Sequence record: PV660448
DNA: 64,000 nucleotides
Strand: one strand, 5' to 3'
DNA from: Escherichia phage LF82-4
The notes under the pieces were generated by a model that saw nothing but the letters and a program-made list of their open reading frames with translations, was not told the DNA's origin and did no database searches. Shown in pieces: positions 3,181 to 61,195 of the stretch. A program made the position numbers and the translations under genes. Position 1 is the first letter of the stretch. Every line of letters starts with the position of its first letter.

Positions 3181-3210
3181 CTTATTTCCTTGTTGTTTGA
3201 CGATAGATTA

Positions 3211-3235: not shown

Positions 3236-3237
3236 TA

Positions 3238-3546
3238 TTACATAAGAAGCAAACGTTCTACCGGAGTACCATCAACCGAAATTACTTTATCAAGGCGGAA
3301 AGAACGCCACTGACCTAACTTGGTATCGAATGCTCGAACTGATTCACGAGGTTCATAACGAACTTCTGTTGCTGGATTGTTATTGACATATTTGACTTCA
3401 AGTTCATCGCGCGAAGCAAACATAGTGCGTACATCACCGTTAGCCTTTTCAAATACAACACAATGAACGCCTACAGACAGAATAGTTTTAATACGTTCAC
3501 GAAGAACCATAGTTTCTTGTTCAGTTAAAATCATATTATTCACCAC
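3238..3546 (-). CDS. hypothetical protein (102 aa), position of T4 31.1/31.2
   Basis: ORF track; synteny. Confidence 0.5.
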   Translation of the reverse strand: MVNNMILTEQETMVLRERIKTILSVGVHCVVFEKANGDVRTMFASRDELEVKYVNNNPATEVRYEPRESVRAFDTKLGQWRSFRLDKVISVDGTPVERLLLM

Positions 3547-4117
3547 AAAAGTTTCGGATTTGTTCCCAATTCAGAGAACGAAGATTATTACGAGAGTACT
3601 GAATTACTTCAATACCAGCTTGTTTTAGAATATCTGCCCAATTTTCAGGAGATCGGTCGTATAATTCTGCGTATACAACCTTTTTAATACCTGACTGCGT
3701 AATAGCTTTAGTGCAATCAGGACACGGAGAAAGCGTAGTATATAACGTAGCACCTTCAATAGAATTACCTTTACGAGCGGCAAACAAAATTGCATTCAAT
3801 TCTGCATGGATTTCATTATTAGCAGACCATGCACTATGAGCAGCTCGATGTTCTTTGGCTAAAACAAAATTATCTACCCGTCCAAATGCTGTAGTGCCTT
3901 CTTTATGTCCAGCAACGATGACTGGGATTGGTTTATTCTTCAACCAACCATTTTCAGATGCATGTTCGCAACAGTTAACGCCACCTGCAGGTGAACCGTT
4001 ATATCCAGTAGAGATAATGCGTCCATCTTTTTCAATGACGGCACCAACTTTCCATGAACAACATTTTGATTCTTGAGAAATCAGATATGCAATCTGAAGG
4101 TATGTGCTAGCTTTCAT
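3536..4117 (-). CDS. cd: dCMP deaminase
   Basis: 193 aa; cytidine/dCMP deaminase zinc motifs (HAE...PC..C); recalled similarity to T4 Cd. Confidence 0.85.
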   Translation of the reverse strand: MKASTYLQIAYLISQESKCCSWKVGAVIEKDGRIISTGYNGSPAGGVNCCEHASENGWLKNKPIPVIVAGHKEGTTAFGRVDNFVLAKEHRAAHSAWSANNEIHAELNAILFAARKGNSIEGATLYTTLSPCPDCTKAITQSGIKKVVYAELYDRSPENWADILKQAGIEVIQYSRNNLRSLNWEQIRNFCGE

Positions 4118-5109: not shown

Positions 5110-5229
5110 AACAATCCTTAGGAGATATAAACAGATTCTGATTCAACAATACCTTTAACCGGATTAGACAGGCTAAGTTGGTAGTGCTCAGATTTATGAC
5201 CATTCTCGATAGTAATGAGATAGCTCTCA

Positions 5230-5466
5230 TTATAGTGTTCCATATACTCGAGTTGCTTCAACAAGACCATCACTGCCTAATTTAAGATTAGTAATTTGGT
5301 CACCATCTTTAGGATTAACGATTATGAGAAAAGAACGTGGAGATTCTTGAATAACTCGTAATGTTGCATCCTGGAAACGTTCAGACACTTTATTGATGAG
5401 TGCTTGAGCAAATTCTTTTACTTTAATCTGAAATTCGTGTACTGTAATTGGATTTTCACTTAGCAT
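5230..5466 (-). CDS. hypothetical protein (about 78 aa; start at internal Met after promoter)
   Basis: ORF track ORF 5230-5571 trimmed to first ATG downstream of promoter 5495-5524 with RBS GAGGAAA. Confidence 0.4.
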   Translation of the reverse strand: MLSENPITVHEFQIKVKEFAQALINKVSERFQDATLRVIQESPRSFLIIVNPKDGDQITNLKLGSDGLVEATRVYGTL

Positions 5467-5494
5467 TTCAATTTCCTCATTTGTTGGTAGAGTT

Positions 5495-5524
5495 ATAGTA
5501 TCACAACTCCACCATGTTGTAAAC
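5495..5524 (-). promoter_or_regulatory. T4-type early promoter
   Basis: minus-strand GTTTAC-N18-TACTAT. Confidence 0.5.
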
Positions 5525-5800
5525 TTAAATTGCAAAACATTTAATTTCTTGTGAATCGAAATCAACTTCACACTGAATTACTAGTTCAGCATCAAGACCA
5601 AACACAACAATCACATGAGCCGAGCTGGGCAACAATGTAACAGACACAGAATCCACTTGGTCAGGCACCAGAGTATTCAAAACGTAGAGTAGTTCAGAGT
5701 GGACCTTAAGCTCGGTAGCAGTATCCAGCTTATCAAAGAAATGATTTGCGATAATCTGACTAAAAACGACCTTTACAATTTCAGAATATTTAGGGAACAT
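5525..5800 (-). CDS. hypothetical protein (91 aa)
   Basis: ORF track. Confidence 0.4.
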   Translation of the reverse strand: MFPKYSEIVKVVFSQIIANHFFDKLDTATELKVHSELLYVLNTLVPDQVDSVSVTLLPSSAHVIVVFGLDAELVIQCEVDFDSQEIKCFAI

Positions 5801-5807
5801 AATTACC

Positions 5808-6032
5808 TCAGTGTACAGTATTTACTTTAACTCGAACAACAAATTGCTCGGTCGGTTCGCCTACAGGAACAAACTCTACATGATATTCGCCTTTGTAACG
5901 AGTATTCAGGTCGTTACGAATTTCGGTAAGCTTGTTGATTAATGTAGAACTCATATTAAGTCCTACTAGTTTACGAAGCATTTTGTATGCTTCATCTTCG
6001 ATTTCATGATGTTTATCGTACATAATTTTCAT
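5808..6032 (-). CDS. hypothetical protein (74 aa)
   Basis: ORF track. Confidence 0.4.
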   Translation of the reverse strand: MKIMYDKHHEIEDEAYKMLRKLVGLNMSSTLINKLTEIRNDLNTRYKGEYHVEFVPVGEPTEQFVVRVKVNTVH

Positions 6033-6203
6033 TTAACCATTCAATTGCCTGGTCGACGTTATCAAATATACCACCGTCCAAACGTTCTTCATGCTCATAG
6101 TCCAGCACATCAATACCGAACTGTCCATTTACTAAAGGCCAGGCTACAAACAAATATTCTTTATGCTGTTCGATGGCCTCAATCACTTCATATAATCGTT
6201 TCA

Positions 6204-6204
<1 letters not shown>
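6013..6204 (-). CDS. hypothetical protein (63 aa)
   Basis: ORF track; ATGA overlap with pseT stop. Confidence 0.4.
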
Positions 6205-7290
<1,086 letters not shown>

Positions 7291-7291
<1 letters not shown>

Positions 7292-7590
7292 TATTTTATT
7301 CCTAAGAAAGTTTCAAGAATACGAATGTTATGCTCGCGCCGGTCTTTATTAATTTCAGCAACGTTTTTATTAATTGACGTACTTCTAACGTTTGAAGAAA
7401 TAAATTTAATCATATGACTTTTGAGTTGTTGCAAATCCAACCCTTTTTCTTTAGCAGCTTTACGAAGAGCTTTACCTGCTTCATCTAGTGCCTTTGCTGC
7501 ATCTTTGTCATAATTGCCAAGTGACATTCCACGACAGATATCAATATACTCATCAGACCGTTTGATGTAATTCTCTAGTAATGTTTTCAT
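7291..7590 (-). CDS. hypothetical protein (99 aa)
   Basis: ORF track; promoter upstream. Confidence 0.45.
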
Positions 7591-7618
7591 TTAGATTTCC
7601 TCAATTATCCATAGGAGC

Positions 7619-7648
7619 ATTATAATCTGCTCCTGAGAGTTTGTAAAC
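7619..7648 (-). promoter_or_regulatory. T4-type early promoter embedded in inverted repeat AGGAGCA/TGCTCCT
   Basis: minus-strand GTTTAC-N18-TTATAAT. Confidence 0.5.
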
Positions 7649-7872
7649 TATTTTACTAAAGATTCAATATACTCGTGAAGAGCTTTAGTCGCTACTGCCC
7701 ACTTATTCTGATATTCATTTTTCAGATTAGCACGAGACTGAACTAACAATCGGTCATTAGTCGGAGGCAAAGATTCTAATCGTTGAATCTGGCGCCCATA
7801 AATCATAGCCGCCATTTCAGATTCATAGATAAGCCCTTTAATGTGTTCATGCTGTTCTTTAGTCATTGGCAT
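7648..7872 (-). CDS. hypothetical protein (74 aa)
   Basis: ORF track. Confidence 0.45.
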   Translation of the reverse strand: MPMTKEQHEHIKGLIYESEMAAMIYGRQIQRLESLPPTNDRLLVQSRANLKNEYQNKWAVATKALHEYIESLVK

Positions 7873-8153
7873 TTTTCCTCTTTTAAACCACTACGATAAT
7901 AACATAACATAGTCTTCTGGTCATGTACATATCTTTTTACGTCGTTTAACCAGATACGAAATTCTTGAGAGTCTTCAAATGGCATTCCAACCCATGGATT
8001 ACCATCAATAACCTTTACTTGCCATTTCTGGTTATATTCAACAATAGATTCAGGCCATTGTGGATGTAAAGTTTCTTTAGGGCTTAAGGGCACATCCTGG
8101 GCACATCCAGCCAAAATGCCAATAGATAATACAACTGCGGATAATTTAATCAT
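7863..8153 (-). CDS. predicted lipoprotein (96 aa)
   Basis: N-terminal signal with lipobox LAGC. Confidence 0.5.
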   Translation of the reverse strand: MIKLSAVVLSIGILAGCAQDVPLSPKETLHPQWPESIVEYNQKWQVKVIDGNPWVGMPFEDSQEFRIWLNDVKRYVHDQKTMLCYYRSGLKEEKCQ

Positions 8154-8506
8154 TCTGAGAGCTTCCTGAGGTCTTCTGCAAAGGAATCGAAGGACCTGTT
8201 GATTTGTTTTTCGACCAATCCTGGCTTACTTGCCACCACGTTCTTCTTCTTCGAATCCTTACGGAGCTTTTCATTTTCAGCCTTAAGTTGGTCAACTAAA
8301 ACACGGTTCTTATAAGTCATTTCTTCGATTGACTGATATTGAACTTTGAAGTCGTCTAATACTTTAGCATTGTTTTTAGCAGCCTCTTTAACAGAGGCCA
8401 ATTCAGTATTCAACGAATCAACTTTGTTGTTTAAGACAACTATTGTTACCGTAGAAACTAGAGCAAAAGCTGCTACTATAGCGTAAATCGGATTTACTTT
8501 AAGCAT
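8150..8506 (-). CDS. hypothetical membrane-anchored coiled-coil protein (118 aa)
   Basis: N-terminal hydrophobic helix then charged K/E-rich region. Confidence 0.45.
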   Translation of the reverse strand: MLKVNPIYAIVAAFALVSTVTIVVLNNKVDSLNTELASVKEAAKNNAKVLDDFKVQYQSIEEMTYKNRVLVDQLKAENEKLRKDSKKKNVVASKPGLVEKQINRSFDSFAEDLRKLSE

Positions 8507-8994
8507 GTTTTAATAATCTCAATGATTTCATCTCGGGATAATCCATTGATAAGAACGGTTTTCAAACCATCACACTGGATTTTGTACGATTCAAACAATA
8601 CACACAACTCTTCTGCTGTATGATATGGACTTGAGATTCCGAGGCGGTTGAATTTGTCGGTAAGAGGGTCGCAAATAATGTAGAATTTTATGCCTGCGAT
8701 ATGTACGTTTGGTTGACTAATATTAATGAACACATTAGCGTCATATTTAGTCAAATTGTTTTGAAGAAATTCTACCATAGCATTAACTGCTTCCGGCATC
8801 GCTTCACGTTTCTCTTCGGTGTAACGTGTTGAATATTCCTTTTGCTTTAACTTCTTTTTAGCATTTTTCGCTAGAGTAGTACGAAGGTCCGTAAGATAAC
8901 CAACTGCACGGCCTTTCTTAAAGACCCGGATTCCATCTGTAGAATCACCAAATGCTGCCACAACCATATCGTTAGTAATCAATTGCATATTCAT
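8494..8994 (-). CDS. alc: Alc (blocks host transcription on cytosine DNA), start at internal ATG 8992-8994
   Basis: about 166 aa from ATG preceded by RBS GAGGAG and early promoter; position between pseT cluster and rnlA as in T4. Confidence 0.6.
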   Translation of the reverse strand: MNMQLITNDMVVAAFGDSTDGIRVFKKGRAVGYLTDLRTTLAKNAKKKLKQKEYSTRYTEEKREAMPEAVNAMVEFLQNNLTKYDANVFINISQPNVHIAGIKFYIICDPLTDKFNRLGISSPYHTAEELCVLFESYKIQCDGLKTVLINGLSRDEIIEIIKTCLK

Positions 8995-9024
8995 AATTTT
9001 CTCCTCGTGTTGTTGATAAAAACC

Positions 9025-9054
9025 ATAGTAACACCATCCTTGGTGTTTGTAAAC
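9025..9054 (-). promoter_or_regulatory. T4-type early promoter
   Basis: minus-strand GTTTAC-N18-TACTAT upstream of alc. Confidence 0.5.
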
Positions 9055-9056
9055 CA

Positions 9057-10190
<1,134 letters not shown>

Positions 10191-10207
10191 TCAGTTAGTT
10201 TTTTTAA

Positions 10208-10237
10208 ATTGTACCACAATCCTTGTGGTATGTAAAC
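10208..10237 (-). promoter_or_regulatory. T4-type early promoter with 8-bp inverted repeat in spacer
   Basis: minus-strand GTTTAC-N18-TACAAT upstream of rnlA. Confidence 0.5.
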
Positions 10238-10647
10238 TACTTTTTCTTATGTTGGATATTCCAAGGCGGGTTGAACTTTTTGATAAAAAGTGGTTCTTCA
10301 AGGTCCATTGTTGCAATGGTCATTGAACCAAGTTCGTTAGTGACTGAAAGGTCAAAACATTGGCGGGCCCAGAATTCAACCTTTTTGCCTTGCATTAAGG
10401 CATCCAAAATCATAAGTGATTTTCTTGAATCTGAAGTCTGGTCTTTTCGATTTATGGCTGTTCGATAATAGTTAATGCGTTTCTTTAAATTCTTGGTTTT
10501 ACCAATATACACAAGTTCGTCATCTATAGCAATAGCGTATATGACATTTTTCTTATTAGGGGCATCAATGGTTTTAATTGTTGCATCTTCTAATAGCTCC
10601 AATTCTATATATTTAATAAAGGAATATTCGGCGGCAATATCTTTCAT
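10237..10647 (-). CDS. denA: endonuclease II (GIY-YIG family)
   Basis: 136 aa; motif VIYAIAIDDELVYIGKTKNLKKRINYYR; recalled near-identity to T4 DenA. Confidence 0.85.
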   Translation of the reverse strand: MKDIAAEYSFIKYIELELLEDATIKTIDAPNKKNVIYAIAIDDELVYIGKTKNLKKRINYYRTAINRKDQTSDSRKSLMILDALMQGKKVEFWARQCFDLSVTNELGSMTIATMDLEEPLFIKKFNPPWNIQHKKK

Positions 10648-10649
10648 AA

Positions 10650-10669
10650 TAAAGTGGGACCGAAGTCCC
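10650..10669 (-). terminator. stem-loop GGGAC-CGAA-GTCCC (terminator or RBS-sequestering hairpin)
   Basis: between nrdB stop and denA start. Confidence 0.45.
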
Positions 10670-10673
10670 GTCC

Positions 10674-11852
10674 TTAGAAATATTTTTTGTATGAATTGAT
10701 TACATTTTGGTCTACATCATTATCAATTTGTGCAACAAGATAAGAACTGATTTCAACTTCCTGAGGAGCTGCTTGAACTAAATCAGAGTTCAGATATTCA
10801 CGAATCCAAGGATACGGATGCTTGGTCGGAGCGTCAGTGATTGGGCATGGCAAACCGCACTGTTTCATACGAGACACAGACAAGTAATCAACAAAAGCAC
10901 ACATACTCTGCGTATTGATACCTGGACATGTACCATCTTTAAAAAGGTGTGCAGCCCATTCCTTCTCTTGACTATTTACTTCCATAAAAATGTCAACTGC
11001 TTCTTGTTCACATTCTTTAGCAATTTGAACCCACTCATCACCGTCAGTACCAGATTGAAGTTGACGGATAATGTACTGAGTACCCTTGAGATGGAGTTGT
11101 TCGTCACGAGCAATGAACTTCATAATCTTTGCATTGCCTTCCATAATTTCCATATTTTTATGGAAGTTGAAAGTACATGCAAATGATACGTAAAAACGAA
11201 TAGCTTCTAAGGCGTTGATAACATGCAAACAGAGATAAAGAGACTTCATTAGGTCATGTTTACATTCTTCCATGTGCATAAGACTATTTGAATATGCATC
11301 TAAATCATATTCATTTTCGGAAAAACATTTAAAAATTTCTTTAGCATTTTCCCATTCACGTGTTTTAACTAGAACATCATCATAATATTTGCCGATTGAT
11401 TCCGCACGTTTCATAATTGCTTCATCTAATACAATCTCATCAAATACCTTCGATGGATCAGTATAAAGATTTCGCATGATATGAGTATATGAACGAGAGT
11501 GAATGGTTTCACTGAATGTCCATGTAGCAACCCATGTATCTAATGAAGGGTCAGAAATCAGTGCCATAAGTACCGCAGATGGGGCCCTGCCTTGGATAGA
11601 ATCTAATAACGATTGATACTTAAGATTGTTTGTAAAGATATCCTGTTGAAACTGAGGAAGCTTATTGAACTGCGCAGAGTCCAACATCAAGTTTACCTCT
11701 TCCGGGCGCCAAAAAAACGACAATTGCTTTTCAATAAGCTCTTCAAAAACTTTATGGCGTTGAATATCGTAACGCGCAAGGCCAAGACCGGAACCAAAGA
11801 ACATTGGTTCATTCAAAACATCAACTTTTTGGGTATTAAAAACTGTACTCAT
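10674..11852 (-). CDS. nrdB: ribonucleotide reductase small subunit (uninterrupted)
   Basis: 392 aa; di-iron ligand pattern; no intron. Confidence 0.9.
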   Translation of the reverse strand: MSTVFNTQKVDVLNEPMFFGSGLGLARYDIQRHKVFEELIEKQLSFFWRPEEVNLMLDSAQFNKLPQFQQDIFTNNLKYQSLLDSIQGRAPSAVLMALISDPSLDTWVATWTFSETIHSRSYTHIMRNLYTDPSKVFDEIVLDEAIMKRAESIGKYYDDVLVKTREWENAKEIFKCFSENEYDLDAYSNSLMHMEECKHDLMKSLYLCLHVINALEAIRFYVSFACTFNFHKNMEIMEGNAKIMKFIARDEQLHLKGTQYIIRQLQSGTDGDEWVQIAKECEQEAVDIFMEVNSQEKEWAAHLFKDGTCPGINTQSMCAFVDYLSVSRMKQCGLPCPITDAPTKHPYPWIREYLNSDLVQAAPQEVEISSYLVAQIDNDVDQNVINSYKKYF

Positions 11853-11902
11853 TATATTCTCTCAATAGTGACTCATCCATGAGTCAATTATAAACAAAAT
11901 TC

Positions 11903-14158
11903 TTAAAGCTTACAAGCGGAGCAATCTTCAGCTTTAGGCGTTTCTAACTCATAGTCATCTGTACCAGAACCATCTCGAGTGTTATGATAGTAAAGGTTCT
12001 TACCACCAAAGTACCAGAAGTAAAGCAAGTCATCAAGCATTACAGACATTGGCACTTTGCCTTTCTCAAAGACTGAAGGGTCGTAGTATGTATTAGCAGA
12101 AGCAGATTGGCACACCCATTTTAACATGATAACAACTTGTGTCAGATAAGGCTTATTACCTTTCTTAGAGAGTTTCCACGCATAGTCATAAAGACCCATG
12201 TTGTGTTCAATATTAGGAACTACTTGACGGAAATTACCTTCTTTAGATTCTTTAATACTTACTGGGCCACGAGGTGGTTCAATACCATTTGTGCTATTTG
12301 AGACCTGGCTGCTTGATTCGCATGGCATGAGAGCACTGAGTGTACTGTTACGAATCCCGTGTTCTTTAAGTTCGGCTCGTAGTTCTTCCCAATCACATAC
12401 ATAGTTTGGGGCTGCGATTTGGTCAATCTTTTTATTGTACCAGTCGATAGGTAATTCGCCTCGAGACCATTTAGTGTCTGAATAATACTCGCAAGGTCCT
12501 TTTTCTTTGGCGAGTTTGATTGAAGCTTTGATAAGGCCATATTGCAATCTCTCAAACAATTCATGAGTCAAATCGTTAGCGTCTTCATATGAAGCAAAGT
12601 TAGAAGCTAACCATGCAGCATAGTTCGTCACACCAACACCGAGATTTCGACGCTTTTTGGCTTTTAAAGCTTCTGGAACCGGATAGTCTTGATAGTCTAA
12701 CAGGTTATCAAGTGCACGTACTTGTACTTCAGCAAGTTCATTAATTTTATCTTGGTCTTGCCAATCAAATTTATCTAATACAAAAGCAGATAACGTGCAT
12801 AAACCAATTTCAGCATCAGGGCCATTCACATCATTAGTTGGAATAGCGATTTCACAACATAAGTTACTCTGACGAATTGGAGCTTTTTCACGAATAAATG
12901 GAGTGTAGTTATTCGTGTTATCAACAAACTGTGGATAAATTCGAGCAGTACCAGAACGTTCAGTCATGAACAATTCAAAGAGTTCTAGTGCTTTGATTCT
13001 TTTCTTTCTGATTGTTGGGTCTTTTTCAGCTTTCTCATAAAGCTCACGGAATTTATCTTGATCTTCAAAGAACGAGTAATATAGTTCGCCTGACATTTCG
13101 TGAGGGCTAAATAAAGTAATATAATCATTTTTGCCAAGGCGTTCCATCATGAGGTCATTAATCTGAATTCCATAGTCCATATGTCGAATACGGTTTTCAT
13201 CCACGCCTTTGTTATTTTTCAGAACTAATAGGTTCTCTACTTCTAAGTGCCACATCGGATAATACGCTGTAGCAGCACCACCACGAATACCACCTTGAGA
13301 ACAAGATTTTACTGCAGTTTGGAAATGTTTCCAGAATGGAATAACACCTGTATGTCGAACTTCACCCATACCAATCTTAGAACCTTCTGCACGAAGCATA
13401 CCAACGTTGATACCGATACCAGCTCGTTTAGAAATATATTCAATAATTGATGCTGAAGTTTTGTTAATAGATTTTAACGAATCACCGGCTTCAATAACTA
13501 CACAACTAGAGAACTGGCGAGTTGGAGTACGAGCACCTGCCATAATTGGGGTTGGCAATGAAACTTGATGAGTAGAAACGGCATCATAAAAACGAATAAT
13601 ATGTTTCAAACGGTCATGAGTTTCGTCTTGATGTAAGGCCATGCCAATAGCCATGATAGCAAACTGCGGAGTTTCATAAATCTTACCGGTTGTTTTATCT
13701 TTAACCAGGTATTTTTCTTTAAGCTGCATAGCACCAGCATAAGTCAAGTCAAAGTCTCGTTCATGTTTAATCTGTGAATCGAGATAAATGATTTCTTCTG
13801 CTGAATATTGAGACAACAGCTCAGGGTCGTATTTGCCTTCATTAACACAATAAGAAATATGGTCGATAAAAGCAGGCGGTTCAAACTGCCCATATACATC
13901 TTTACGAAGTGCAAACATTAATCCTTTAGCGGCAACATATTGATAGTCAGGTTCTTCGACAGAAATCAAGTTAGCTGCAACTTTAATACAAATCTTCTGG
14001 ATATCTTTGGTGCTCATCCCATCAACCAGATGAGTCTTAATTTCTTCATACAATTCGTATGGGTCGATTTGTGTTCCTTCACATTGCCAAGTTAAGACTT
14101 GAATAATTTTCTGTGCATCAAAATTTTGGGATACCCCACTGCTCTTAATTACTTGCAT
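11903..14158 (-). CDS. nrdA: ribonucleotide reductase large subunit
   Basis: 751 aa; recalled high similarity to T4 NrdA. Confidence 0.9.
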   Translation of the reverse strand: MQVIKSSGVSQNFDAQKIIQVLTWQCEGTQIDPYELYEEIKTHLVDGMSTKDIQKICIKVAANLISVEEPDYQYVAAKGLMFALRKDVYGQFEPPAFIDHISYCVNEGKYDPELLSQYSAEEIIYLDSQIKHERDFDLTYAGAMQLKEKYLVKDKTTGKIYETPQFAIMAIGMALHQDETHDRLKHIIRFYDAVSTHQVSLPTPIMAGARTPTRQFSSCVVIEAGDSLKSINKTSASIIEYISKRAGIGINVGMLRAEGSKIGMGEVRHTGVIPFWKHFQTAVKSCSQGGIRGGAATAYYPMWHLEVENLLVLKNNKGVDENRIRHMDYGIQINDLMMERLGKNDYITLFSPHEMSGELYYSFFEDQDKFRELYEKAEKDPTIRKKRIKALELFELFMTERSGTARIYPQFVDNTNNYTPFIREKAPIRQSNLCCEIAIPTNDVNGPDAEIGLCTLSAFVLDKFDWQDQDKINELAEVQVRALDNLLDYQDYPVPEALKAKKRRNLGVGVTNYAAWLASNFASYEDANDLTHELFERLQYGLIKASIKLAKEKGPCEYYSDTKWSRGELPIDWYNKKIDQIAAPNYVCDWEELRAELKEHGIRNSTLSALMPCESSSQVSNSTNGIEPPRGPVSIKESKEGNFRQVVPNIEHNMGLYDYAWKLSKKGNKPYLTQVVIMLKWVCQSASANTYYDPSVFEKGKVPMSVMLDDLLYFWYFGGKNLYYHNTRDGSGTDDYELETPKAEDCSACKL

Positions 14159-14245
14159 ATATTCCTCAGTATAGGTTGATAGACATTACTCCAAACGGGA
14201 TAGTATTTATCCCGTTAATTTATTATACACTTTTAAACTGAAGCG

Positions 14246-14500
14246 TTAATTATCCTCAGCAATAATTTCTTCATATTCTTTAGGAGTTAAGACTGTAATA
14301 TCGAAATAAACCAGAGGCTCTTTTTCCATACCGAATCCACCACAGAATTCACGATATTCATAAATTCGTTCATGTGAATGGCAAATGAATCGTTCACCTT
14401 TAACTGTGATTTCACTATTCGGTGAAGGGATATCCAGTTCACTTGGATTTTTCATTTCAAAAATTGTGGTGCCATATGAATTAATAAAACGTAAAATCAT
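14246..14500 (-). CDS. hypothetical protein (84 aa), translationally coupled to td
   Basis: ATG one nt after td stop (TAAAATG); trimmed from ORF 14246-14563. Confidence 0.45.
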   Translation of the reverse strand: MILRFINSYGTTIFEMKNPSELDIPSPNSEITVKGERFICHSHERIYEYREFCGGFGMEKEPLVYFDITVLTPKEYEEIIAEDN

Positions 14501-14501
14501 T

Positions 14502-14813
14502 TTATACCGCCATTTTAGCTTTGATAGCTGGATGTGATTCGTAATTTTTAAGAATGAAATCACTCGGATTCATATGCTCTGTTACCCAATGAAGCTGTAA
14601 TGTCGTGCTCCAATCAGAGAATCCTTCAGGCCAATCAATTTTAAGTTCACACAGTTCTTTAGGCTCACGACGAAGAACTTCTTTGCATTGTTCTACATGA
14701 TTGCTGTAGATATGCGTGTTGCCGCCTGAGAACACTAAATCACCTGGGATAAGGTTACACATCTTCGCTACAATATGCGTCAAGGCAGCGTACGAGGCAA
14801 TGTTGAATGGTAG
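14502..14813 (-). CDS. td: thymidylate synthase, exon 2
   Basis: encodes LPFNIASYAALTHIVAKMCNLIPGDL... C-terminal TS segment; joins exon 1 at 15831. Confidence 0.85.
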   Translation of the reverse strand, partial: LPFNIASYAALTHIVAKMCNLIPGDLVFSGGNTHIYSNHVEQCKEVLRREPKELCELKIDWPEGFSDWSTTLQLHWVTEHMNPSDFILKNYESHPAIKAKMAV

Positions 14814-15830
14814 CATTATGTTCAGATAAGGTCGTTAATCTTATCCCGGAATTATATCCAGCTGCATGTCACCATGCAGAGCAGACTATATCTCCAACTT
14901 GTTAAAGCAAGTTGTCTATCGTTTCGAGTCACTTGACCCTACTCCCTAAAGGGATAGTCGTTAGGCATTTATGTAGAACCAATTCCACTTATCAGATTTT
15001 ACACGGTAAGTAACTAATCCTGATGAAATTTCAAAATGTCTAGCCGCATCGGCTGCACATTCAAAAATAATCCCGTCGCATGAAATCTTTTTGATGTTAG
15101 CTGGCTTTTTGCCTTTCATCTTTTCAGATAGTTTAGTTTTAGTTTTTTCTGAATGTTTGTGATTAAAGAACGGGTTATTTTCAGCTGAACGTTTTCGACA
15201 CTTTCCACAAGTGTTGGCTGAAGTTGGTATACGAACACCACATTTACAAAACTTGTGGTTTTCCGGATTCCATCTACCATTTTTACTTCCGTGTTTACCA
15301 TAAATAGCTTTTCGACCATCAGATCCAAGCTTAAGCATCTTAGCTTTAACAGTTTCAGCTCGTTTCTTAGCAATTTCTTCCTTTAATGGATGATTCGAAA
15401 ATGTATCACCAAAGGACGCATCGGCGATATTATATCCATTAATTTTAGAATTTAGCTCGTTAATCCAAAAATTTTCTCGTTCAATAATCAAATCTTTCTC
15501 ATATGGAATTTCTTCCAATATAGAGCATTCAAAAACATTACCGTGTTTATTAAAAGATCTTTGAAATTTTATAGAAGAGTGAACACCATTTTCAAGGTCT
15601 TTAAAATGTCTCTTCCATCTTTTCTCAAAATCTTTAGCACTTCCAACATACACTTTACCATTTAAAGTGTTTTTAATCTGATAAATTCCACTTTTCATAA
15701 ACACCTCTTTAAAATATAGAAGTATTTATTAAAGGGTGGTCCTACAATTTAGCACGGGATTGTCTACTAGAGAGGTTCCCCGTTTAGATAGATTACAAGT
15801 ATAAGTCACCTTATACCCAGGCCTAAATTA
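14814..15830 (-). mobile_element. group I self-splicing intron in td (about 1017 nt) carrying I-TevI ORF
   Basis: 5-prime end TAATTTAGGCCTGGGTATAAGGTGACTTATACTTGTAATCTATCTAAACGGGGAACC matches recalled T4 td intron; exon 1 ends in U, intron ends in G; splicing restores TS frame. Confidence 0.85.
14961..15698 (-). CDS. I-TevI: GIY-YIG homing endonuclease I-TevI (intron-encoded)
   Basis: 245 aa from MKSGIYQIKNTLNGKVYVGSAKDFEKRWKRH...; recalled near-identity to T4 I-TevI. Confidence 0.9.
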   Translation of the reverse strand: MKSGIYQIKNTLNGKVYVGSAKDFEKRWKRHFKDLENGVHSSIKFQRSFNKHGNVFECSILEEIPYEKDLIIERENFWINELNSKINGYNIADASFGDTFSNHPLKEEIAKKRAETVKAKMLKLGSDGRKAIYGKHGSKNGRWNPENHKFCKCGVRIPTSANTCGKCRKRSAENNPFFNHKHSEKTKTKLSEKMKGKKPANIKKISCDGIIFECAADAARHFEISSGLVTYRVKSDKWNWFYINA

Positions 15831-17201
<1,371 letters not shown>

Positions 17202-17203
17202 TT

Positions 17204-17395
17204 TTATTTCCTCAGATATTTTTTGACCATATAGTATTGGAATTCAAACATTCTTGAATCAATAACAAAAATTTGTTTTCTTGGGCATTCATTTAATCGT
17301 ACAGCTGAACACCCAAACGCAAGTTCATGATATTGTTTCTTTTCTATTTCTGAAAGGAAAGTTCTAAGATAACGGAAAAATAGACAGTTAATCAT
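17204..17395 (-). CDS. hypothetical protein (63 aa)
   Basis: ORF track. Confidence 0.4.
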   Translation of the reverse strand: MINCLFFRYLRTFLSEIEKKQYHELAFGCSAVRLNECPRKQIFVIDSRMFEFQYYMVKKYLRK

Positions 17396-17397
17396 AA

Positions 17398-17646
17398 TTA
17401 TTTCCTCAGATTTTTCTTAACAACTTTCCAATCGGCTTTAAACGATTCAACATCAGAATGGTGAATCCAGAATCCTGCGCTTTCACCATCTTCGTAGAGT
17501 GGACATCCATCACATTCTTCATTCCAACCCATTTCACGTAAAGATGTTTCAGCTTGTTCAAGGAGTTCAGCATCTTTATCAAGGATGTTGAAGTACCATT
17601 TGCCTTTAACTTCAGAGTCGTTAATGCTTTGGCGTTGTAATTTCAT
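17398..17646 (-). CDS. hypothetical protein (82 aa)
   Basis: ORF track. Confidence 0.45.
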   Translation of the reverse strand: MKLQRQSINDSEVKGKWYFNILDKDAELLEQAETSLREMGWNEECDGCPLYEDGESAGFWIHHSDVESFKADWKVVKKNLRK

Positions 17647-17711
17647 TTTATTCTCCGTTGCTTCATTTGTTTTGACAGGGTAATAGTATCACACCATTAC
17701 CCTGTTGTATA

Positions 17712-18074
17712 CTATTTTATTCCAAAAATTTCTTTAATTTCTGCAATCACATCTCGAGCATTTTCTGTAGTCACTTCAAAGATGAGTGATTGTTTAGAAA
17801 TAGACTCTGGAGATACCTCGATGAAGTGTTTAAACTCATCATCATAAAGCTCAAAATATGAACCTGGCTTACCATCAAAACCGAATTCAGTACCGTCTCG
17901 CATAGTTACACGGGTTACACATTTATCATCATCATAATCTGTGTTCATGTCTTTTACAACAAAACTAGGACCATGAAGCTCAATCAAAGCCAGCATATCG
18001 GCGTTTTGTGGGCATTCATTGGCGAAGATAGCTTTACATTCTGGATTGATGATATAAGTTTTTCCAATTTTCAT
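17712..18074 (-). CDS. hypothetical protein, paralog A (120 aa)
   Basis: clear sequence similarity to ORF 18136-18522 (M.IGK.YIINP..K..FANEC...LIE.HGPSFVV...RVTM.DGTE). Confidence 0.55.
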   Translation of the reverse strand: MKIGKTYIINPECKAIFANECPQNADMLALIELHGPSFVVKDMNTDYDDDKCVTRVTMRDGTEFGFDGKPGSYFELYDDEFKHFIEVSPESISKQSLIFEVTTENARDVIAEIKEIFGIK

Positions 18075-18106
18075 TTTGATTTCCTCTCATTTGTTTTGAT
18101 AGGACT

Positions 18107-18136
18107 ACTATAACATAGCCCTATCTGATTGTACAC
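18107..18136 (-). promoter_or_regulatory. T4-type early promoter
   Basis: minus-strand GTGTAC-N18-TATAGT. Confidence 0.45.
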
Positions 18137-18522
18137 TACTTTTTAAAAGTTTTTTGCAAAAGTTTGATGATTTCGTCGACGTTGGTTTCATCTACGATAC
18201 AATGGATTTTTGTTACACCTAAAGTTATACCTTCGTTAGTAGATTGAGGCTTTTCTAAAGTTACCTCAGTAAAGTATTTGAATTCTTCAGAGTAAATCTC
18301 AAAATACGTCTCAAGTGGGCCACCAGCCATGTATTCAGTGCCGTCTTCCATAGTTACACGTACCACACAGTCACCAGCACAATCATCACTTTCCATTTCA
18401 TCTACAACAAAACTAGGTCCGTGCTTCTCTATTAAATTTAGCATCATTACATTGCAACGGCACTCGTTAGCAAAGTCATCTTTAAATAAAGGGTTAATGA
18501 TATAAGATTTTCCGATTTCCAT
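18136..18522 (-). CDS. hypothetical protein, paralog B (128 aa)
   Basis: tandem paralog of 17712-18074. Confidence 0.55.
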   Translation of the reverse strand: MEIGKSYIINPLFKDDFANECRCNVMMLNLIEKHGPSFVVDEMESDDCAGDCVVRVTMEDGTEYMAGGPLETYFEIYSEEFKYFTEVTLEKPQSTNEGITLGVTKIHCIVDETNVDEIIKLLQKTFKK

Positions 18523-18551
18523 TTTGATTTCCTCATGTTGTTGATAGGTTT

Positions 18552-18580
18552 ATACTAACACATTCAGGGAAGAAGTAAAC
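18552..18580 (-). promoter_or_regulatory. T4-type early promoter
   Basis: minus-strand GTTTAC-N17-TAGTAT. Confidence 0.5.
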
Positions 18581-18603
18581 AACTTTTTCAGCAATTTACA
18601 GAT

Positions 18604-18629
18604 ACTCAAAAGGGAGACCGAAGTCTCCC
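18604..18629 (-). terminator. rho-independent terminator after gene 32 (GGGAGAC-CGAA-GTCTCCC plus T-run)
   Basis: same hairpin sequence as at 2109-2126. Confidence 0.6.
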
Positions 18630-18635
18630 AATTTA

Positions 18636-19535
18636 TTATAGACCAGCTAACAGGTCATCGAGGTCGCCATCGTCAGAAGACGAGGAACTCATGAAGTCAT
18701 CTTCAGTTTTTGCAGAACCAAAGGCTTCCATGTCTTTATCAAAATCGTCGAGGTCAGAAGCAACTTTATCTGCAACAGAAGCTGCTGCGGCTGCTGCACC
18801 ACCGAGAGCGGCAGTACCAAGAACCTTAGCGAAAGATTCATTTAATTTTTCAAAGGACTTGAACTGGTCTTTAGCCGTCAAAGTAGTAAGGTCTACCATC
18901 TGGTCATATAGTTCTTTCTGGAATGCTTCGTCATTAATACGAGGAATTTCAGATTGTCCCAAGAATTTAGATTCGTCATAGTTGCTAAAACCAGAAACCT
19001 GCTTAGCTTTCAGAACGAAGTTGGCACCTTCAAACGGGCAAGTAACATCAACCGGAGTTTCACCCATTTCGGTATCAACTGCAATCATTGCATTGATTTT
19101 GTCCCAAATCTTTTTACCGAAACGATATTTAAATACTTTACCTTCATTATCTGGAGCTTGAGGGTCTTTAACAACCAGAATATTAGCCCAATAAGAAGTT
19201 TTACGTTTCAGTTGAGAATATTCAGTTTTGTTGGTATTGTACAGGTCATTTTTACTAATGTACTGACATACAGGACAAGAGTCGTAATCACCATGTGTAG
19301 AAGAGCAATTTTCAATATACCATTTACCATTTTTCTTGAAACCGTGGTTAACAAGAATTGCAAATGGTAGTGCGTCATCAGTTTTTGCTGGCAGGAAACG
19401 AATTACCGCTTGACCATTACCTGATGCATCTAGCTTCAGCTTCCATTCGCCTTTATCTTCTGAAGAGAAACCTTTGTTACCGTTCAGTTTAGCCATTTGA
19501 GCAGCGAGGTCAGCAGTAGATTTACGTTTAAACAT
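18636..19535 (-). CDS. 32: single-stranded DNA-binding protein gp32
   Basis: 299 aa; zinc ligands; acidic C-terminus; recalled high similarity to T4 gp32. Confidence 0.9.
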
Positions 19536-19620
19536 TATATTTACCTTTATTTAGATTATTTAGATTATTTAATTTATTTACAGTTGGTTGCTACGACACT
19601 TATACCTCGTAGCTGGTATG
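19536..19620 (-). promoter_or_regulatory. gene 32 translational operator (A/U-rich unstructured tract with UAAAU repeats plus upstream pseudoknot-forming hairpin)
   Basis: minus-strand ...CAGCTACGAGGTATAAGTGTCGTAGCAACCAACTGTAAATAAATTAAATAATCTAAATAATCTAAATAAAGGTAAATATATG; resembles recalled T4 gene 32 autoregulatory leader. Confidence 0.6.
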
Positions 19621-19623
19621 ATT

Positions 19624-19631
19624 TATTTATA
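19624..19631 (-). promoter_or_regulatory. late promoter motif TATAAATA upstream of gene 32
   Basis: exact TATAAATA on minus strand about 90 nt upstream of start. Confidence 0.45.
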
Positions 19632-19660
19632 AAGTAATTTTAACACACAAGAAATAAAGC

Positions 19661-20314
19661 TTAATACTTACATGATTTGATTGTTTCTATGAACAATTTC
19701 TTAGCAGCATTTCCATCGATTTGAAGTATTTTTCGATATGCCTTTAATTTGGTAGAATAATTTTGCCAGACTAAATTGTCAGTAAGTTCGTCATGCTTAT
19801 CTATAATATTCAAGAATGAATCCAACAACAAGAAGGTTTCAAATGAAATTATATTGCTTTGTAGCAATTTAAATATGTAGCTCGACTGAACTTTATTATT
19901 ATAATCAAATATCTCTTGAAGCGCACTAACTTCCACTTTCTTGCTGAAATAGTAGATGTTACGTACATCTTCAGCAAACGTCTCCTTGGCTTGTTTGAGA
20001 CGTCCAATATATTCCCTATAGAAAACTAATGCATCAGCGTCTGATATCTCACCAATCCACGCATCTTGGTTAGCAACTAAGTTACTGATGAATATCAAGG
20101 TGAGTTCCTTTAACTTATATTTCTCTGCTAGTTTCTCAAAGAAATATTTATCTCGGCGTTTTTGATACGCATTATCCGAAACACGCATGCACCAGTTATA
20201 TTTGATTACGTCATACCGACCACCAAAATGGTTTTTGCACATCAAGTATAGTTTGTATACCGATTTTCCATTAATATAACGTTCTCCATCAGGAGGCATA
20301 CGTATTTTAATCAT
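19661..20314 (-). CDS. 59: helicase loader gp59
   Basis: 217 aa; recalled high similarity to T4 gp59. Confidence 0.85.
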   Translation of the reverse strand: MIKIRMPPDGERYINGKSVYKLYLMCKNHFGGRYDVIKYNWCMRVSDNAYQKRRDKYFFEKLAEKYKLKELTLIFISNLVANQDAWIGEISDADALVFYREYIGRLKQAKETFAEDVRNIYYFSKKVEVSALQEIFDYNNKVQSSYIFKLLQSNIISFETFLLLDSFLNIIDKHDELTDNLVWQNYSTKLKAYRKILQIDGNAAKKLFIETIKSCKY

Positions 20315-37828: not shown

Positions 37829-37872
37829 GCTAATTTCCTCAATTGATTAATGTTTTTGTAATCCATGAGAGC

Positions 37873-37900
37873 ATTATACTCTGCTCTCAAGAGTTTGTAC
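37873..37900 (-). promoter_or_regulatory. T4-type early promoter embedded in inverted repeat GAGAGCA/TGCTCTC
   Basis: minus-strand GTACAA-N-TATAAT upstream of ndd. Confidence 0.45.
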
Positions 37901-38105: not shown

Positions 38106-38133
38106 TTTGTGTTCCTCATGTTTCAGTAGGACT

Positions 38134-38163
38134 ACTATACCATAATCCTACTGTGTTGTAAAC
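38134..38163 (-). promoter_or_regulatory. T4-type early promoter
   Basis: minus-strand GTTTAC-N18-TATAGT. Confidence 0.5.
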
Positions 38164-38619: not shown

Positions 38620-38645
38620 GATGTTATCCTCTTTTAGATAGGACT

Positions 38646-38675
38646 ACTATATCATAGTCCTACTTAGTTGTAAAC
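38646..38675 (-). promoter_or_regulatory. T4-type early promoter
   Basis: minus-strand GTTTAC-N18-TATAGT. Confidence 0.5.
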
Positions 38676-47858: not shown

Positions 47859-47884
47859 ATTATTCTCCTCTGGTTGATATGGTT

Positions 47885-47913
47885 ATAATATCAAAACCAG
47901 AGGAGAAGTAAAC
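47885..47913 (-). promoter_or_regulatory. T4-type early promoter within inverted repeat CTCTGGTT/AACCAGAG
   Basis: minus-strand GTTTAC-N17-TATTAT. Confidence 0.5.
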
Positions 47914-53299: not shown

Positions 53300-53881
53300 C
53301 TAAAAATTCAACATCTTTAAGTGAATGATTTTGTATACTCGAGACAAAGGGTCATACTCTAACTCTTCGATTTCCACAATCTCGAATCTAGAGATACCTG
53401 AAACCATGTACTCTTGTTCAGATTCAATCATATCTAGGACATCAACACGCGTTTCTTCCATAACATGCTTAGGGTTCTTTCCGGCGAGTACAATGTTAAC
53501 CATGTTTTGGTAGTAATCAAAAATGAATGGAGCATTCCTGAGACTAAGAATAGTGTACGTCTGATATTCCCATCTCCCTGAGAATTGACGAGCTGTACTG
53601 AAATCAGTTGTGAACGATGTTACTCGTCCAGGAGACCATTGGCATCCAACAGAAAGAAGGGAAAGACGTTCTACTTCTTCTGGAGTTACACCACGGTAGA
53701 GTTCTACTGGTACTGTAGAAGTCATATGCTTACGAACAAGACGGTCTAATTCATAGTGAAAATCCGGGTCTTCCTTAGAATCGGTGCAAGCCCAGAGAAT
53801 GTTTTGTTCTTGGCGGGTGAATTTGCTATCAATAAGATTTGTTAGGTATTCGCGTTCTTGAAGTTCAGATTGACATGTCAT
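53300..53881 (-). CDS. modB: ADP-ribosyltransferase ModB-like
   Basis: 193 aa; paralog of preceding ORF. Confidence 0.6.
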   Translation of the reverse strand: MTCQSELQEREYLTNLIDSKFTRQEQNILWACTDSKEDPDFHYELDRLVRKHMTSTVPVELYRGVTPEEVERLSLLSVGCQWSPGRVTSFTTDFSTARQFSGRWEYQTYTILSLRNAPFIFDYYQNMVNIVLAGKNPKHVMEETRVDVLDMIESEQEYMVSGISRFEIVEIEELEYDPLSRVYKIIHLKMLNF

Positions 53882-53908
53882 GATAGACCTCCATTTAAAG
53901 ATAAGCCT

Positions 53909-53937
53909 ATCATAACACGAGAGGAGGGAATGTAAAC
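53909..53937 (-). promoter_or_regulatory. T4-type early promoter
   Basis: minus-strand GTTTAC-N17-TATGAT upstream of modB. Confidence 0.5.
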
Positions 53938-59971: not shown

Positions 59972-59999
59972 TTCAATTTCCTCTATAGTTGATAGGTCT

Positions 60000-60029
60000 A
60001 TAGTATCACTACCATAGACCCCTGTAAAC
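60000..60029 (-). promoter_or_regulatory. T4-type early promoter
   Basis: minus-strand GTTTAC-N18-TACTAT. Confidence 0.5.
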
Positions 60030-60388: not shown

Positions 60389-60706
60389 TTAGATTTCCTC
60401 ACAGAAGGCCCATTCAGCGTGATAAACTGTAGCACCTTTAGTATCATTCATTTGAACTACGTCTACCGGAGAAATTACTCGATAGAGACGTGGTTCACCT
60501 CCATAAGAGCGTGCTGCTCGTCCTGCATAAATCTTTGCTAAACCGATATCTTCAGTAAAGAATACACGATCCAAGTTTTTCTTACGTCCAGTTTCAGACA
60601 GAACTCCTGTTTCTTCAGGAGGACAAAGCATGTTTTCGATGTTAGCTGAACTACTTGAACCGTGATAAAAAATCTTAAATTCTGCTTTACAATCGATGGT
60701 TTTCAT
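60389..60706 (-). CDS. hypothetical protein (105 aa) with Y-H-G-S motif; not present at this position in T4
   Basis: ORF track; KIFYHGSSS...RLYRV pattern. Confidence 0.45.
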   Translation of the reverse strand: MKTIDCKAEFKIFYHGSSSSANIENMLCPPEETGVLSETGRKKNLDRVFFTEDIGLAKIYAGRAARSYGGEPRLYRVISPVDVVQMNDTKGATVYHAEWAFCEEI

Positions 60707-60732
60707 TTTGTTCTCCAGTAGTTGATAGGTCT

Positions 60733-60761
60733 ATAATAACACAACTACTGGAGAAGTAAAC
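60733..60761 (-). promoter_or_regulatory. T4-type early promoter flanked by 12-bp inverted repeat CTCCAGTAGTTG/CAACTACTGGAG
   Basis: minus-strand GTTTAC-N17-TATTAT. Confidence 0.5.
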
Positions 60762-61136
60762 TTAAAAACGTAATTTAGATATATCTGCGTTGATTTCGTT
60801 TTGGTTTGCGTCGTATGCAATTAAACGAACCGCTTTAGATGGGTCATTCAATGCATAGAAATGATGGAACATTGCTCGAACGATATCACCATTTACGAGT
60901 TCTACCTGGATAGGAGAACCTTTTTCGAGTTGGAAATGTTCATAAGCTTTGATGGTTCGCAGATAATCAAGTTTTTGATTTCCGGCTCCGACAATTTGTA
61001 CGATACGTTTGCCCATGTTTTCCATACGAGATACAATAGTTTTAGGGGCAAGAATAACGTAGGTTGCCAGTGGAGAAACTACTTCAACAGTTGTGTTTTC
61101 TGTGATTGCAGTAAAAATTGCTTGAGACATATTCAT
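60762..61136 (-). CDS. hypothetical protein (124 aa); not present at this position in T4
   Basis: ORF track. Confidence 0.45.
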   Translation of the reverse strand: MNMSQAIFTAITENTTVEVVSPLATYVILAPKTIVSRMENMGKRIVQIVGAGNQKLDYLRTIKAYEHFQLEKGSPIQVELVNGDIVRAMFHHFYALNDPSKAVRLIAYDANQNEINADISKLRF

Positions 61137-61195
61137 AATGTTTTCCTCTTGGTTGGTGTAAGTTCATCATATCATGCCTAGAGGAAGATGTAAAC

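Follow-up and report, generated by a model that had tools for sequence, protein, structure and literature searches.

Hairpins within the early promoters of a T-even phage: a known stem-loop architecture and a subset predicted to sequester the translation start in read-through RNA

Two kinds of hairpin associated with phage promoters have been described previously. Those known as PeSLs, or promoter-early stem-loops (Arbiol et al. 2010, PMC2839356; Comeau et al. 2014, PMC4122927), were reported from RB49/phi1, and subsequently from PST/T4 and nt-1/KVP40. They lie mostly between the -35 and -10 hexamers or overlap the -10, G-T pairs have been noted in them, and they have been proposed to serve as terminators or attenuators and as recombination cassettes (PMC2839356, PMC4122927). 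In the second kind, described for T4 e, soc, 49, and I-TevI (also I-TevII/III, segB, and Aeh1 mobE), a hairpin sequesters the translation start and a late promoter lies inside it; such a hairpin lowers translation of T4 gene e 100-fold (PMC3014915). Here we analyze 64 kb of DNA from the T-even Escherichia phage LF82-4 (genus Mosigvirus, RB69-like; record PV660448; hereafter, the window). The initial annotation had proposed that early promoters in this window are embedded in inverted repeats, foldable only in RNA read through from upstream, that would make translation promoter dependent across many early genes. We confirmed the repeats, the larger part of which represent the known PeSL architecture. 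The proposed mechanism is partly supported: its logic is correct but too broad for the window, and it holds for a conserved minority of genes at which the hairpin pairs the Shine-Dalgarno sequence (SD) or the start codon. In the literature searched (mostly openly accessible papers, including reviews of T4 transcriptional and post-transcriptional control), we found no prior description of such SD hairpins at early promoters.

Promoters and starts were called directly in the window by a rule requiring GTTTAC with at most one mismatch, a spacer of 16 to 18 nucleotides (nt), TAnnnT with at most two mismatches, and an SD-preceded open reading frame (ORF) start 16 to 96 nt downstream. This rule yielded 27 promoters on the minus strand, which is the strand of early genes in the window, and none on the plus strand; two TTGTAC promoters added by eye brought the set to 29, all minus strand. 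Each is a sigma-70-like early promoter located between an upstream stop codon, in A-rich sequence, and a downstream SD and ATG, as described for PeSLs. Transcription starts (+1) were predicted from consensus and spacing. About 6 nt past the -10 of most early promoters lies a conserved discriminator and initial transcribed sequence, (a)gaCCTATCAA(c/a) (for example, 60732-60720, 60000-59988, and 35563-35551), in which the A of ATCAA is the predicted +1.

The six inverted repeats cited in the initial annotation were all found on the minus strand, although several lengths had been understated (14 bp rather than 12 bp at promoter 60761; 13 bp at 47913). The remaining four comprise 10 Watson-Crick bp at 17712 (14 bp with G.U pairs), 8 bp at 38163 (12 bp with G.U), 7 bp at 7648, and 8 bp at 37902. 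To quantify enrichment, we measured the longest Watson-Crick repeat joining the -35..-10 segment to the -10..ATG segment at 27 promoters. Mean repeat length was 6.37 nt, compared to 4.73 ± 0.17 nt in 500 spacer shuffles (maximum, 5.41). Repeats of at least 7 bp were present at nine promoters (1.2 expected in shuffles; maximum, 5) and repeats of at least 8 bp at six (0.32 expected; maximum, 3). The repeats are thus far commoner at promoters than in spacer shuffles. When the upstream part of one promoter was paired with the downstream part of another, repeats of at least 7 bp arose in 7% of combinations and of at least 8 bp in 2.7%. Because cross-pairs so rarely reach 7 bp, the repeats are promoter specific and not a by-product of the common consensus. 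Local folding from -35 to +8 gave z scores of -2 or lower at 12 of the 29 promoters and -3 or lower at 10, and the resulting stable stem-loops lie within or overlap the promoter, as in PeSLs; a convincing hairpin was lacking at about 10 of the 29. The downstream arm had been said to cover the region of the +1 and the ribosome-binding site (RBS). It covers the predicted +1 in most cases, with 3' ends at -1 to +6, but reaches the RBS or AUG at only four or five promoters.

We next compared the predicted energy cost of opening positions -14 to +2 around the ATG in read-through RNA with that in the promoter's own transcript. Differences of at least 10 kcal/mol occurred at only four of the 29 promoters: 60761 (+18.2), 47913 (+20.2), 53937 (+15.0), and 18580 (+10.4). 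These four, the last a weak case, form class b, in which the SD and/or AUG constitutes the 3' arm of a helix predicted in the long transcript; opening costs 12 to 22 kcal/mol in read-through RNA versus 1.5 to 4.1 kcal/mol in the own transcript. Spacer shuffles produced a mean of 0.56 such promoters (maximum 3 of 100), and 0.32 were expected from cross-pairs (binomial P = 3e-4). Occlusion of the start is thus predicted for a minority, and its extension to many early genes is not supported in the window: the difference is 3 kcal/mol or less at about 20 promoters, where SD and AUG are not sequestered. Moderate occlusion (at least 4 kcal/mol) was also rejected as a general property, since the seven promoters reaching this threshold match the shuffle background (5.1). 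Four of the six originally cited examples (17712, 38163, 7648, and 37902) are compact hairpins ending near +1, with an unpaired SD 18 to 33 nt downstream.

At promoter 60761, on which the initial annotation centered, the -35 hexamer GTTTAC (60756..60761) directly adjoins the TAA stop codon (60764..60762) of an upstream 124-amino-acid (aa) gene, as annotated in Escherichia phage LF82-9. A 17-nt spacer leads to the -10 hexamer TATTAT (60733..60738), and the predicted +1 is the A at 60726, within a recurring cctAtcaac context. The 5' arm of the 14-bp repeat, TTCTCCAGTAGTTG (60742..60755), lies wholly in the promoter spacer and is present only in RNA read through from upstream. The 3' arm, CAACTACTGGAGAA (60711..60724; +2..+15), includes the SD GGAG (60716..60713) and extends to 4 nt before the ATG (60706..60704) of a 105-aa gene (60706..60389; phrog_2110, function unknown), and the 17-nt loop holds the -10 and the predicted +1. 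At promoter 47913 (-35, 47913..47908; -10, 47890..47885), the hairpin spans 47863..47907 upstream of an ATG at 47858 and contains a 13-bp repeat, TTCTCCTCTGGTT / AACCAGAGGAGAA, within arms TTCTCCTCTGGT(T) / (A)ACCAGAGGAGAA, with the SD in the 3' arm. The 174-aa gene behind it is a homolog of T4 motB.2 (33% identity). At promoter 53937 (-35, 53937..53932; hairpin, 53876..53917), the 5' arm TGTTATGATAGGCT takes in the discriminator as well as the -10 TATGAT (53914..53909), and the 3' arm GGTCTATCATGACA includes the ATG (53881) of a 193-aa gene encoding the first Mod ADP-ribosyltransferase, a homolog of T4 modB (38% identity). The fourth case, 18580, is a weak pairing (18529..18574) of the spacer sequence TTCTTC (18574..18569) with the SD GAGGAA (18534..18529) plus an inner helix, with a minimum free energy (MFE) of only -6.9 kcal/mol. 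A moderate anti-SD pairing with one mismatch, TTCCTCTAGG / CCAAGAGGAA, was also found at promoter 61195 (61143..61186; difference, 4.0 kcal/mol). Pfam matches for the gated genes were uninformative except for FRD2 in the 128-aa protein.

Independent folding of read-through RNA gave z scores of -4.8 (60761; -25 kcal/mol), -5.95 (47913; -28.4 kcal/mol), and -3.2 (53937) at the three strong loci. The corresponding own transcripts, taken from the predicted starts, fold with MFEs of 0, 0, and -3 kcal/mol and show less structure than their shuffles (z = +1.2 to +1.6), which suggests that the leaders of the promoters' own transcripts have been selected for openness. Across class b, own-leader MFEs range from 0 to -3 kcal/mol. 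Because the promoter's spacer or -10 supplies the 5' arm, promoter geometry excludes this arm from own transcripts. In this respect the initial proposal had the arrangement right: a 5' arm in the spacer or -10, and a hairpin foldable only in read-through RNA.

We consider it reasonably probable that RNA stem-loops of two classes are built into T4-type early-promoter cassettes, foldable only in read-through RNA, and that those of class b gate translation. The early promoter would fire at the predicted +1 to yield RNA that begins inside or after the hairpin and carries an unusually unstructured leader. RNA from upstream promoters would read through the terminator-less junctions and fold the hairpin. 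The class b helix (roughly -19 to -24 kcal/mol at the three strong loci; about -7 kcal/mol at 18580) would then block both 30S binding and access by the endoribonuclease RegB, such that the gene would be translated, and its GGAG exposed to RegB, only while its own early promoter is active. The predicted outcome is a brief immediate-early burst of synthesis, for instance of the ModB ADP-ribosyltransferase, a pattern that would suit proteins that are toxic or kept under tight control (ModB and, in T4, RegB and Alc). We infer the effect on ribosomes from thermodynamics and by analogy with T4 gene e, where it has been shown experimentally.

To determine how broadly the class b arrangement is conserved, we gathered orthologous loci from IMG/VR using Dda together with alignments of Mod and motB.2-like proteins, because searches with single motB.2-like and Mod proteins returned close relatives only. 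Every modB-like ortholog with a detectable early promoter had an opening-cost difference of 11 to 19 kcal/mol, and all 17 of the 17 motB.2-like loci had differences of 10.5 to 18.8 kcal/mol. The stems themselves vary, with five designs at motB.2-like loci and about ten across modB-like lineages (for example, TATGATAGC/GCTATCATG, AATGACCTC/GGAGGTCAT, GCATCGTGA/TCACGATGC, AGCCATGATAT/ATATCATGGCT, and TGATGTCTTCC/GGAGGACATCA). Typically, the modB 5' arm runs from the 3' end of the spacer through the -10 and discriminator and pairs with a 3' arm made up of the SD and AUG; in the first three examples, the start-codon context covaries with the -10 region. RNAalifold detected compensatory changes at 6 of 10 predicted pairs among 17 distinct modB leaders. 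The MAFFT-based RNAalifold alignment recovers only part of the modB helix, as arm registers and loop lengths vary, and folding by lineage is more informative. The arrangement is therefore kept in related phages at modB-like and motB.2-like genes, though not at the 105-aa gene.

The position of the 5' arms bears on a different explanation, translational coupling, in which the 5' arm is melted, and the SD released, by ribosomes that finish translating the upstream gene, so that the downstream gene would be translated from read-through RNA only if the upstream gene is itself translated. The upstream stop codon does lie near the -35 (the TAA adjoins GTTTAC at 60761 and is 4 nt ahead of the -35 at 47913). 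A ribosome at the stop codon extends some 7 to 10 nt beyond it. At 60761 and 47913 the 5' arm begins 6 to 10 nt past the stop, and at 53937 about 19 nt past it, so at most the first few of the 12 to 14 pairs would be opened. At modB, the 5' arm is located at the -10, out of ribosome reach in all lineages. We regard coupling as very unlikely.

The T4 RefSeq record carries no promoter annotation, and a literature search for maps of T4 start and termination sites returned nothing, so promoters in 126 kb of T4 were called by the consensus rule used for the window and scanned in the same way. Of 37 promoters called, 10 had a difference of at least 10 kcal/mol; shuffles gave 1.18 (maximum, 2) and cross-pairs 0.6. 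The genes concerned are modB, motB.2, regB (16.7 kcal/mol), alc (15.8 kcal/mol), alt.-3, nrdC.8, ndd.4, e.8, 30.8, and gene 1 (for which the promoter is doubtful), with denV (9.8 kcal/mol) and mrh.2 (8.4 kcal/mol) just below the threshold. The predicted SD-sequestering hairpins at regB, alc, and alt.-3 accompany -35 elements at 62797, 136336, and 123093 of the T4 record, and the alt.-3 cassette is a near-identical duplicate of the alc cassette. Compact local hairpins of -10 kcal/mol or lower were found at eight T4 promoters. Seven of these resemble the compact hairpins of the window (dmd, ipI, trna.4, e.7, ipII, mobD.2, and 30.7), and the eighth is the class b promoter of motB.2.

The presence of regB on this list is relevant to a further possibility, that SD hairpins mainly shield GGAG from RegB and the RNA from decay in long transcripts, keeping polycistronic RNA intact for downstream genes, with any translational effect secondary. 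RegB cuts GGAG in early SDs, its cleavage is blocked by secondary structure, and most middle transcripts are resistant. The SDs of T4 motB.2 and modB are RegB sites in vivo, whereas modB RNA is resistant in vitro, presumably owing to stable secondary structure (Durand et al.). The T4 regB promoter is itself of class b (in LF82-4, the regB gene lies outside the window). This explanation is compatible with translational gating, as a sequestered SD would be closed to ribosomes and RegB alike, and in some class b helices it is mainly the AUG, not the GGAG, that is paired (orthologous loci L086 and L096). Protection as the primary function appears to us a serious but rather unlikely alternative to gating. 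Promoter-dependent opening would itself predict that modB RNA is cut in vivo and yet resistant in vitro.

The more numerous hairpins of the window, which we designate class a, occur at about 9 to 12 of the 29 promoters (60029, 38675, 38163, 37902, 18136, 17712, 7648, 5524, 1627, and, more weakly, 59288). They share a design of 7 to 15 pairs with the 5' arm in the spacer, a short loop, and a 3' arm running from within the -10 to between -1 and +6, with energies of -12 to -19 kcal/mol and z scores of -3.5 to -6.2. The SD lies 16 to 33 nt past the hairpin and is unpaired, and the opening-cost difference is below about 2 kcal/mol at most of these promoters (4.8 kcal/mol at 38675). At 60029, the hairpin GGGTCTATGGTA / TACTATAGACCT (59994..60021; E = -17.3 kcal/mol, z = -5.0) contains the -10 in its 3' arm and ends at -1, leaving the SD free. 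At 38163, CAGTAGGATTAT / GTAGTCCTACTG (38124..38153; z = -5.7) ends at +3 with an unpaired SD 18 nt further on, and at 17712, ACAGGGTAATGGTG / TACTATTACCCTGT (17675..17705; z = -6.2) ends at +1 with the SD 28 nt downstream. The others are AGTAGGACTAT / GTAGTCCTATCT at 38675 (38636..38664; z = -4.1); TCTTGAGAGCA / TGCTCTCATGGA at 37902, which has the -35 TTGTAC (37862..37892; z = -4.0); GATAGGGCTAT / GTAGTCCTATC at 18136, with sense-strand G.U pairs (18098..18125; z = -4.6); AGGAGCA / TGCTCCT at 7648 (7613..7634; z = -3.5); TGGTGGAGTTGTG / TATAACTCTACCA at 5524, with many G.U pairs (5485..5514; z = -5.0); and TTGGTACAGGT... / ...ACCTGTACCAA at 1627 (1586..1620; z = -5.5), a design shared with the T4 30.7 promoter. 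Class a hairpins leave the RBS unoccluded and are not canonical terminators. Their role is the weakest part of our account: they probably act on the upstream or read-through RNA, and may be attenuators or pause signals, or a 3'-end barrier that protects the upstream cistron after cleavage.

A related type at 10237, 9054, 49419, and 48862 is a small hairpin wholly within the spacer with a constant AGGA(T) loop. These are (TA)CCACA-AGGAT-TGTGG(TA) at 10237 (10212..10230; z = -2.5), AACACCA-AGGA-TGGTGTT at 9054 (9030..9047), upstream of an alc homolog, and recurrences at 49400-49413 and 48843-48860, all minus strand. The loop is constant and SD-like and the stem variable (ACACCA-AGGA-TGGTGT, CCACA-AGGAT-TGTGG, and AACCA-AGGA-TGGTT). 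The same design occurs upstream of T4 rIIA.1 and nrdC.4 (locus L053, near 2458 and 50973) and at loci L069 to L071.

Whether termination could account for all of the hairpins was assessed from the sequences that follow them. It has been proposed for PeSLs that stem-loops attenuate upstream transcription, and a single experiment on an element resembling class a, an RB49 stem-loop placed between promoter and lacZ, cut reporter expression as strongly as rrnB T1 (Arbiol et al., PMC2839356). Extended to the window, this explanation would have every hairpin, including those containing the SD, terminate or attenuate transcription from upstream, with SD pairing an incidental use of a G-rich sequence. 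The intergenic location of the hairpins, at cistron boundaries, is consistent with this role. However, the 10 nt after the hairpins are A/C-rich with 0 to 3 T, which is unlike the G+C-rich hairpin followed by a U-tract within 0 to 2 nt of an intrinsic terminator. A terminator scan of positions 1..20000 flagged only one of nine promoter hairpins (the 9054 spacer hairpin) yet recovered the canonical terminators of the phage elsewhere (GGGAGAC-UUCG-GUCUCCC plus a T-run), and terminator-like sites were not enriched (13 versus 12.9). Attenuation would also leave unexplained why the SD or AUG stays in the 3' arm across some ten modB stem sequences and why own leaders are less structured than shuffles. 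We consider it unlikely as a general explanation. UUCG-tetraloop terminators do occur immediately upstream of the -35 at 18580 (18612-18629) and 61195 (about 61196-61215), minus strand; this terminator-then-promoter arrangement is a second cassette type, unlike the promoter-internal hairpins. An Rfam search of the 64-kb window gave no matches at the gathering threshold.

Strand asymmetry was used to distinguish structure in RNA from a signal in DNA. The 13 strongest hairpins fold better in the sense than in the antisense orientation (-13.7 versus -10.8 kcal/mol; Wilcoxon p = 0.013), owing to their G.U pairs, six class a stems are lengthened more by allowing G.T than A.C, and the modB helices contain three or four G.U pairs and no A.C pairs. 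Over all 29 promoters, allowing G.T or A.C makes no difference (mean, 8.10 versus 8.03), and the asymmetry is seen only within real hairpins. The mismatches there are sense-strand G.T, which points to a structure in the mRNA-sense strand, acting in RNA, or at least to one that is strand-asymmetric. These data bear on the possibility that the repeats have no RNA function and reflect recombination signals at the DNA level, hitch-hiking during the shuffling of promoter cassettes, or chance. PeSLs have been proposed as recombination sites, and mini-circles have been observed (PMC2839356, PMC4122927). Cassette types do differ between phages at orthologous genes, among them the 105-aa and sp-like genes, and near-identical cassettes recur in the window (35592 and 35271; 49419 and 48862). 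Chance, however, is excluded by the shuffle and cross-pair controls, and a DNA signal would predict neither the sense-strand G.U asymmetry, nor stems that change in sequence while always pairing the local SD or AUG, nor unstructured leaders in own transcripts. An origin without RNA function is highly improbable.

The first of these recurrent pairs comprises two near-identical early-promoter cassettes, GTTTAC(A/T)T(G/T)TGCTTCAAACATGATATTATAGACCTATCAAA, at 35564-35592 and 35243-35271 on the minus strand, 321 bp apart. They flank a 71-aa ORF, and both downstream genes begin with MSK. A direct repeat of this kind is one that, according to the PeSL model, can excise a gene as a mini-circle.

Several observations weigh against the two-class account in which class b hairpins gate translation. 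Promoter activity and start sites in this phage are predictions from consensus and spacing, and the opening-cost comparison is an equilibrium calculation without co-transcriptional folding or ribosomes on the upstream gene. The only experimental result on a class a-like element is the lacZ reporter reduction by the RB49 stem-loop mentioned above. Both 18580 and 61195 lie directly downstream of canonical terminators (the UUCG-loop terminator at 18629..18612, minus strand, just upstream of the former; a terminator-like hairpin ahead of the -35 of the latter), so read-through RNA may be scarce at 61195 and is probably limited at 18580. The 60761 hairpin is strong only in the lineage of this phage (loci L003 and L004) among 50 orthologous loci. 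Finally, T4 alc is strongly occluded, but the alc homolog in the window (promoter 9054) is not (2.2 kcal/mol), which indicates that the trait is labile at many genes.

A conserved hairpin at 60761 was accordingly rejected: the other orthologs of the 105-aa gene keep only a 5- to 6-bp TCTCC/GGAGA contact worth 2 to 6 kcal/mol, or carry a class a hairpin, or have a terminator instead of the -35. The 105-aa protein is widespread in T4-like phages (55 to 100% identity) and has no Pfam match. Its cassettes differ by lineage: some have the hairpin that occludes the SD, and others a class a hairpin, a terminator in place of the -35, or a TTGACA-type promoter.

We tentatively propose, as a possibility somewhat short of an even chance, that T-even phages use the spacer or -10 of an early promoter as an anti-SD or anti-AUG strand, so that a defined set of takeover genes is translatable and RegB sensitive only in own-promoter RNA (modB and motB.2 throughout the subfamily; regB, alc, nrdC.8, ndd.4, 30.8, and alt.-3 in T4). 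If this is true, shutoff of early promoters at 2 to 4 min would stop synthesis of the gated proteins despite delayed-early and middle read-through RNA, providing a simple cis-acting cause for the abrupt end of some immediate-early protein synthesis. It would also constitute a general, previously unrecognized layer of the early-to-middle switch and offer a structural reason why RegB cuts the same GGAG sites in early but not in longer transcripts.

The window begins with uvsX/40/41, dmd, sp, imm, 61, the mod genes, dda, motB, the topoisomerase genes, rIIA/B, and motA; beyond motA lie plus-strand tail-fiber genes and then the rnh-32-frd-td-nrd-pseT-cd region. Escherichia phage LF82-9 (PV660452.1) is 99.7 to 100% identical to the window over the parts compared. 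Its annotation was dropped as a coordinate frame because PV660452 is not colinear with the window below about 56 kb. Across window positions 1-56000, the offset relative to PV660452.1 amounts to some 980 bp at the left end and to 27 bp near 53 kb, which implies at least two indels between the early regions of the two phages.

In comparison with known systems, class a fits the PeSLs: a strong early promoter of the sigma-70 type, preceded by AT-rich sequence, separates a stop codon from the SD and ATG that follow, the stem-loop is within the promoter and contains G-T pairs, there are many copies per genome, and orthologous genes carry differing cassettes. There are also differences. Of the five positional subclasses in print, none extends to the SD or AUG, the role assigned to PeSLs is termination and recombination whereas the hairpins here have no U-tracts, and the stem-loops of T4/PST were described just upstream of the promoter whereas many in the window and in our T4 scan lie inside it. 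Since class a has already been published as PeSLs, our addition there is mainly negative, namely, that the RBS is untouched and that the hairpins are unlike intrinsic terminators, with which they share an intergenic location at a cistron boundary but from which they differ in having no U-tract and stems that are not especially G+C-rich. The part that appears to be new is the SD- or AUG-sequestering subset, which is statistically clear in the window and in T4, has covarying stems at the modB ADP-ribosyltransferase and motB.2 genes, and in T4 is found also at takeover genes whose products are toxic or under tight control, regB and alc among them. This subset resembles the T4 e-type hairpins in pairing the SD or AUG in long transcripts, in an internal promoter whose RNA lacks the 5' strand, and in being kept in related phages. 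It differs in its promoter, which is a sigma-70 early promoter (GTTTAC-N17-TAnnAT) here and a gp55-dependent late promoter (TATAAATA) there; the promoters of our set are early promoters of the GTTTAC-N16-18-TAnnnT type, making class b a variant rather than a member of the described set. The 5' strand here is the promoter's own spacer or -10, and the genes concerned, known so far by prediction, are modB and motB.2 and, in T4, also regB, alc, nrdC.8, ndd.4, and 30.8. The predicted outcome is mirrored, with expression limited to the first minutes of infection instead of being withheld until late. Class b is in this sense a variant, built on an early promoter, of the control that late promoters exert at T4 e, soc, 49, and I-TevI.

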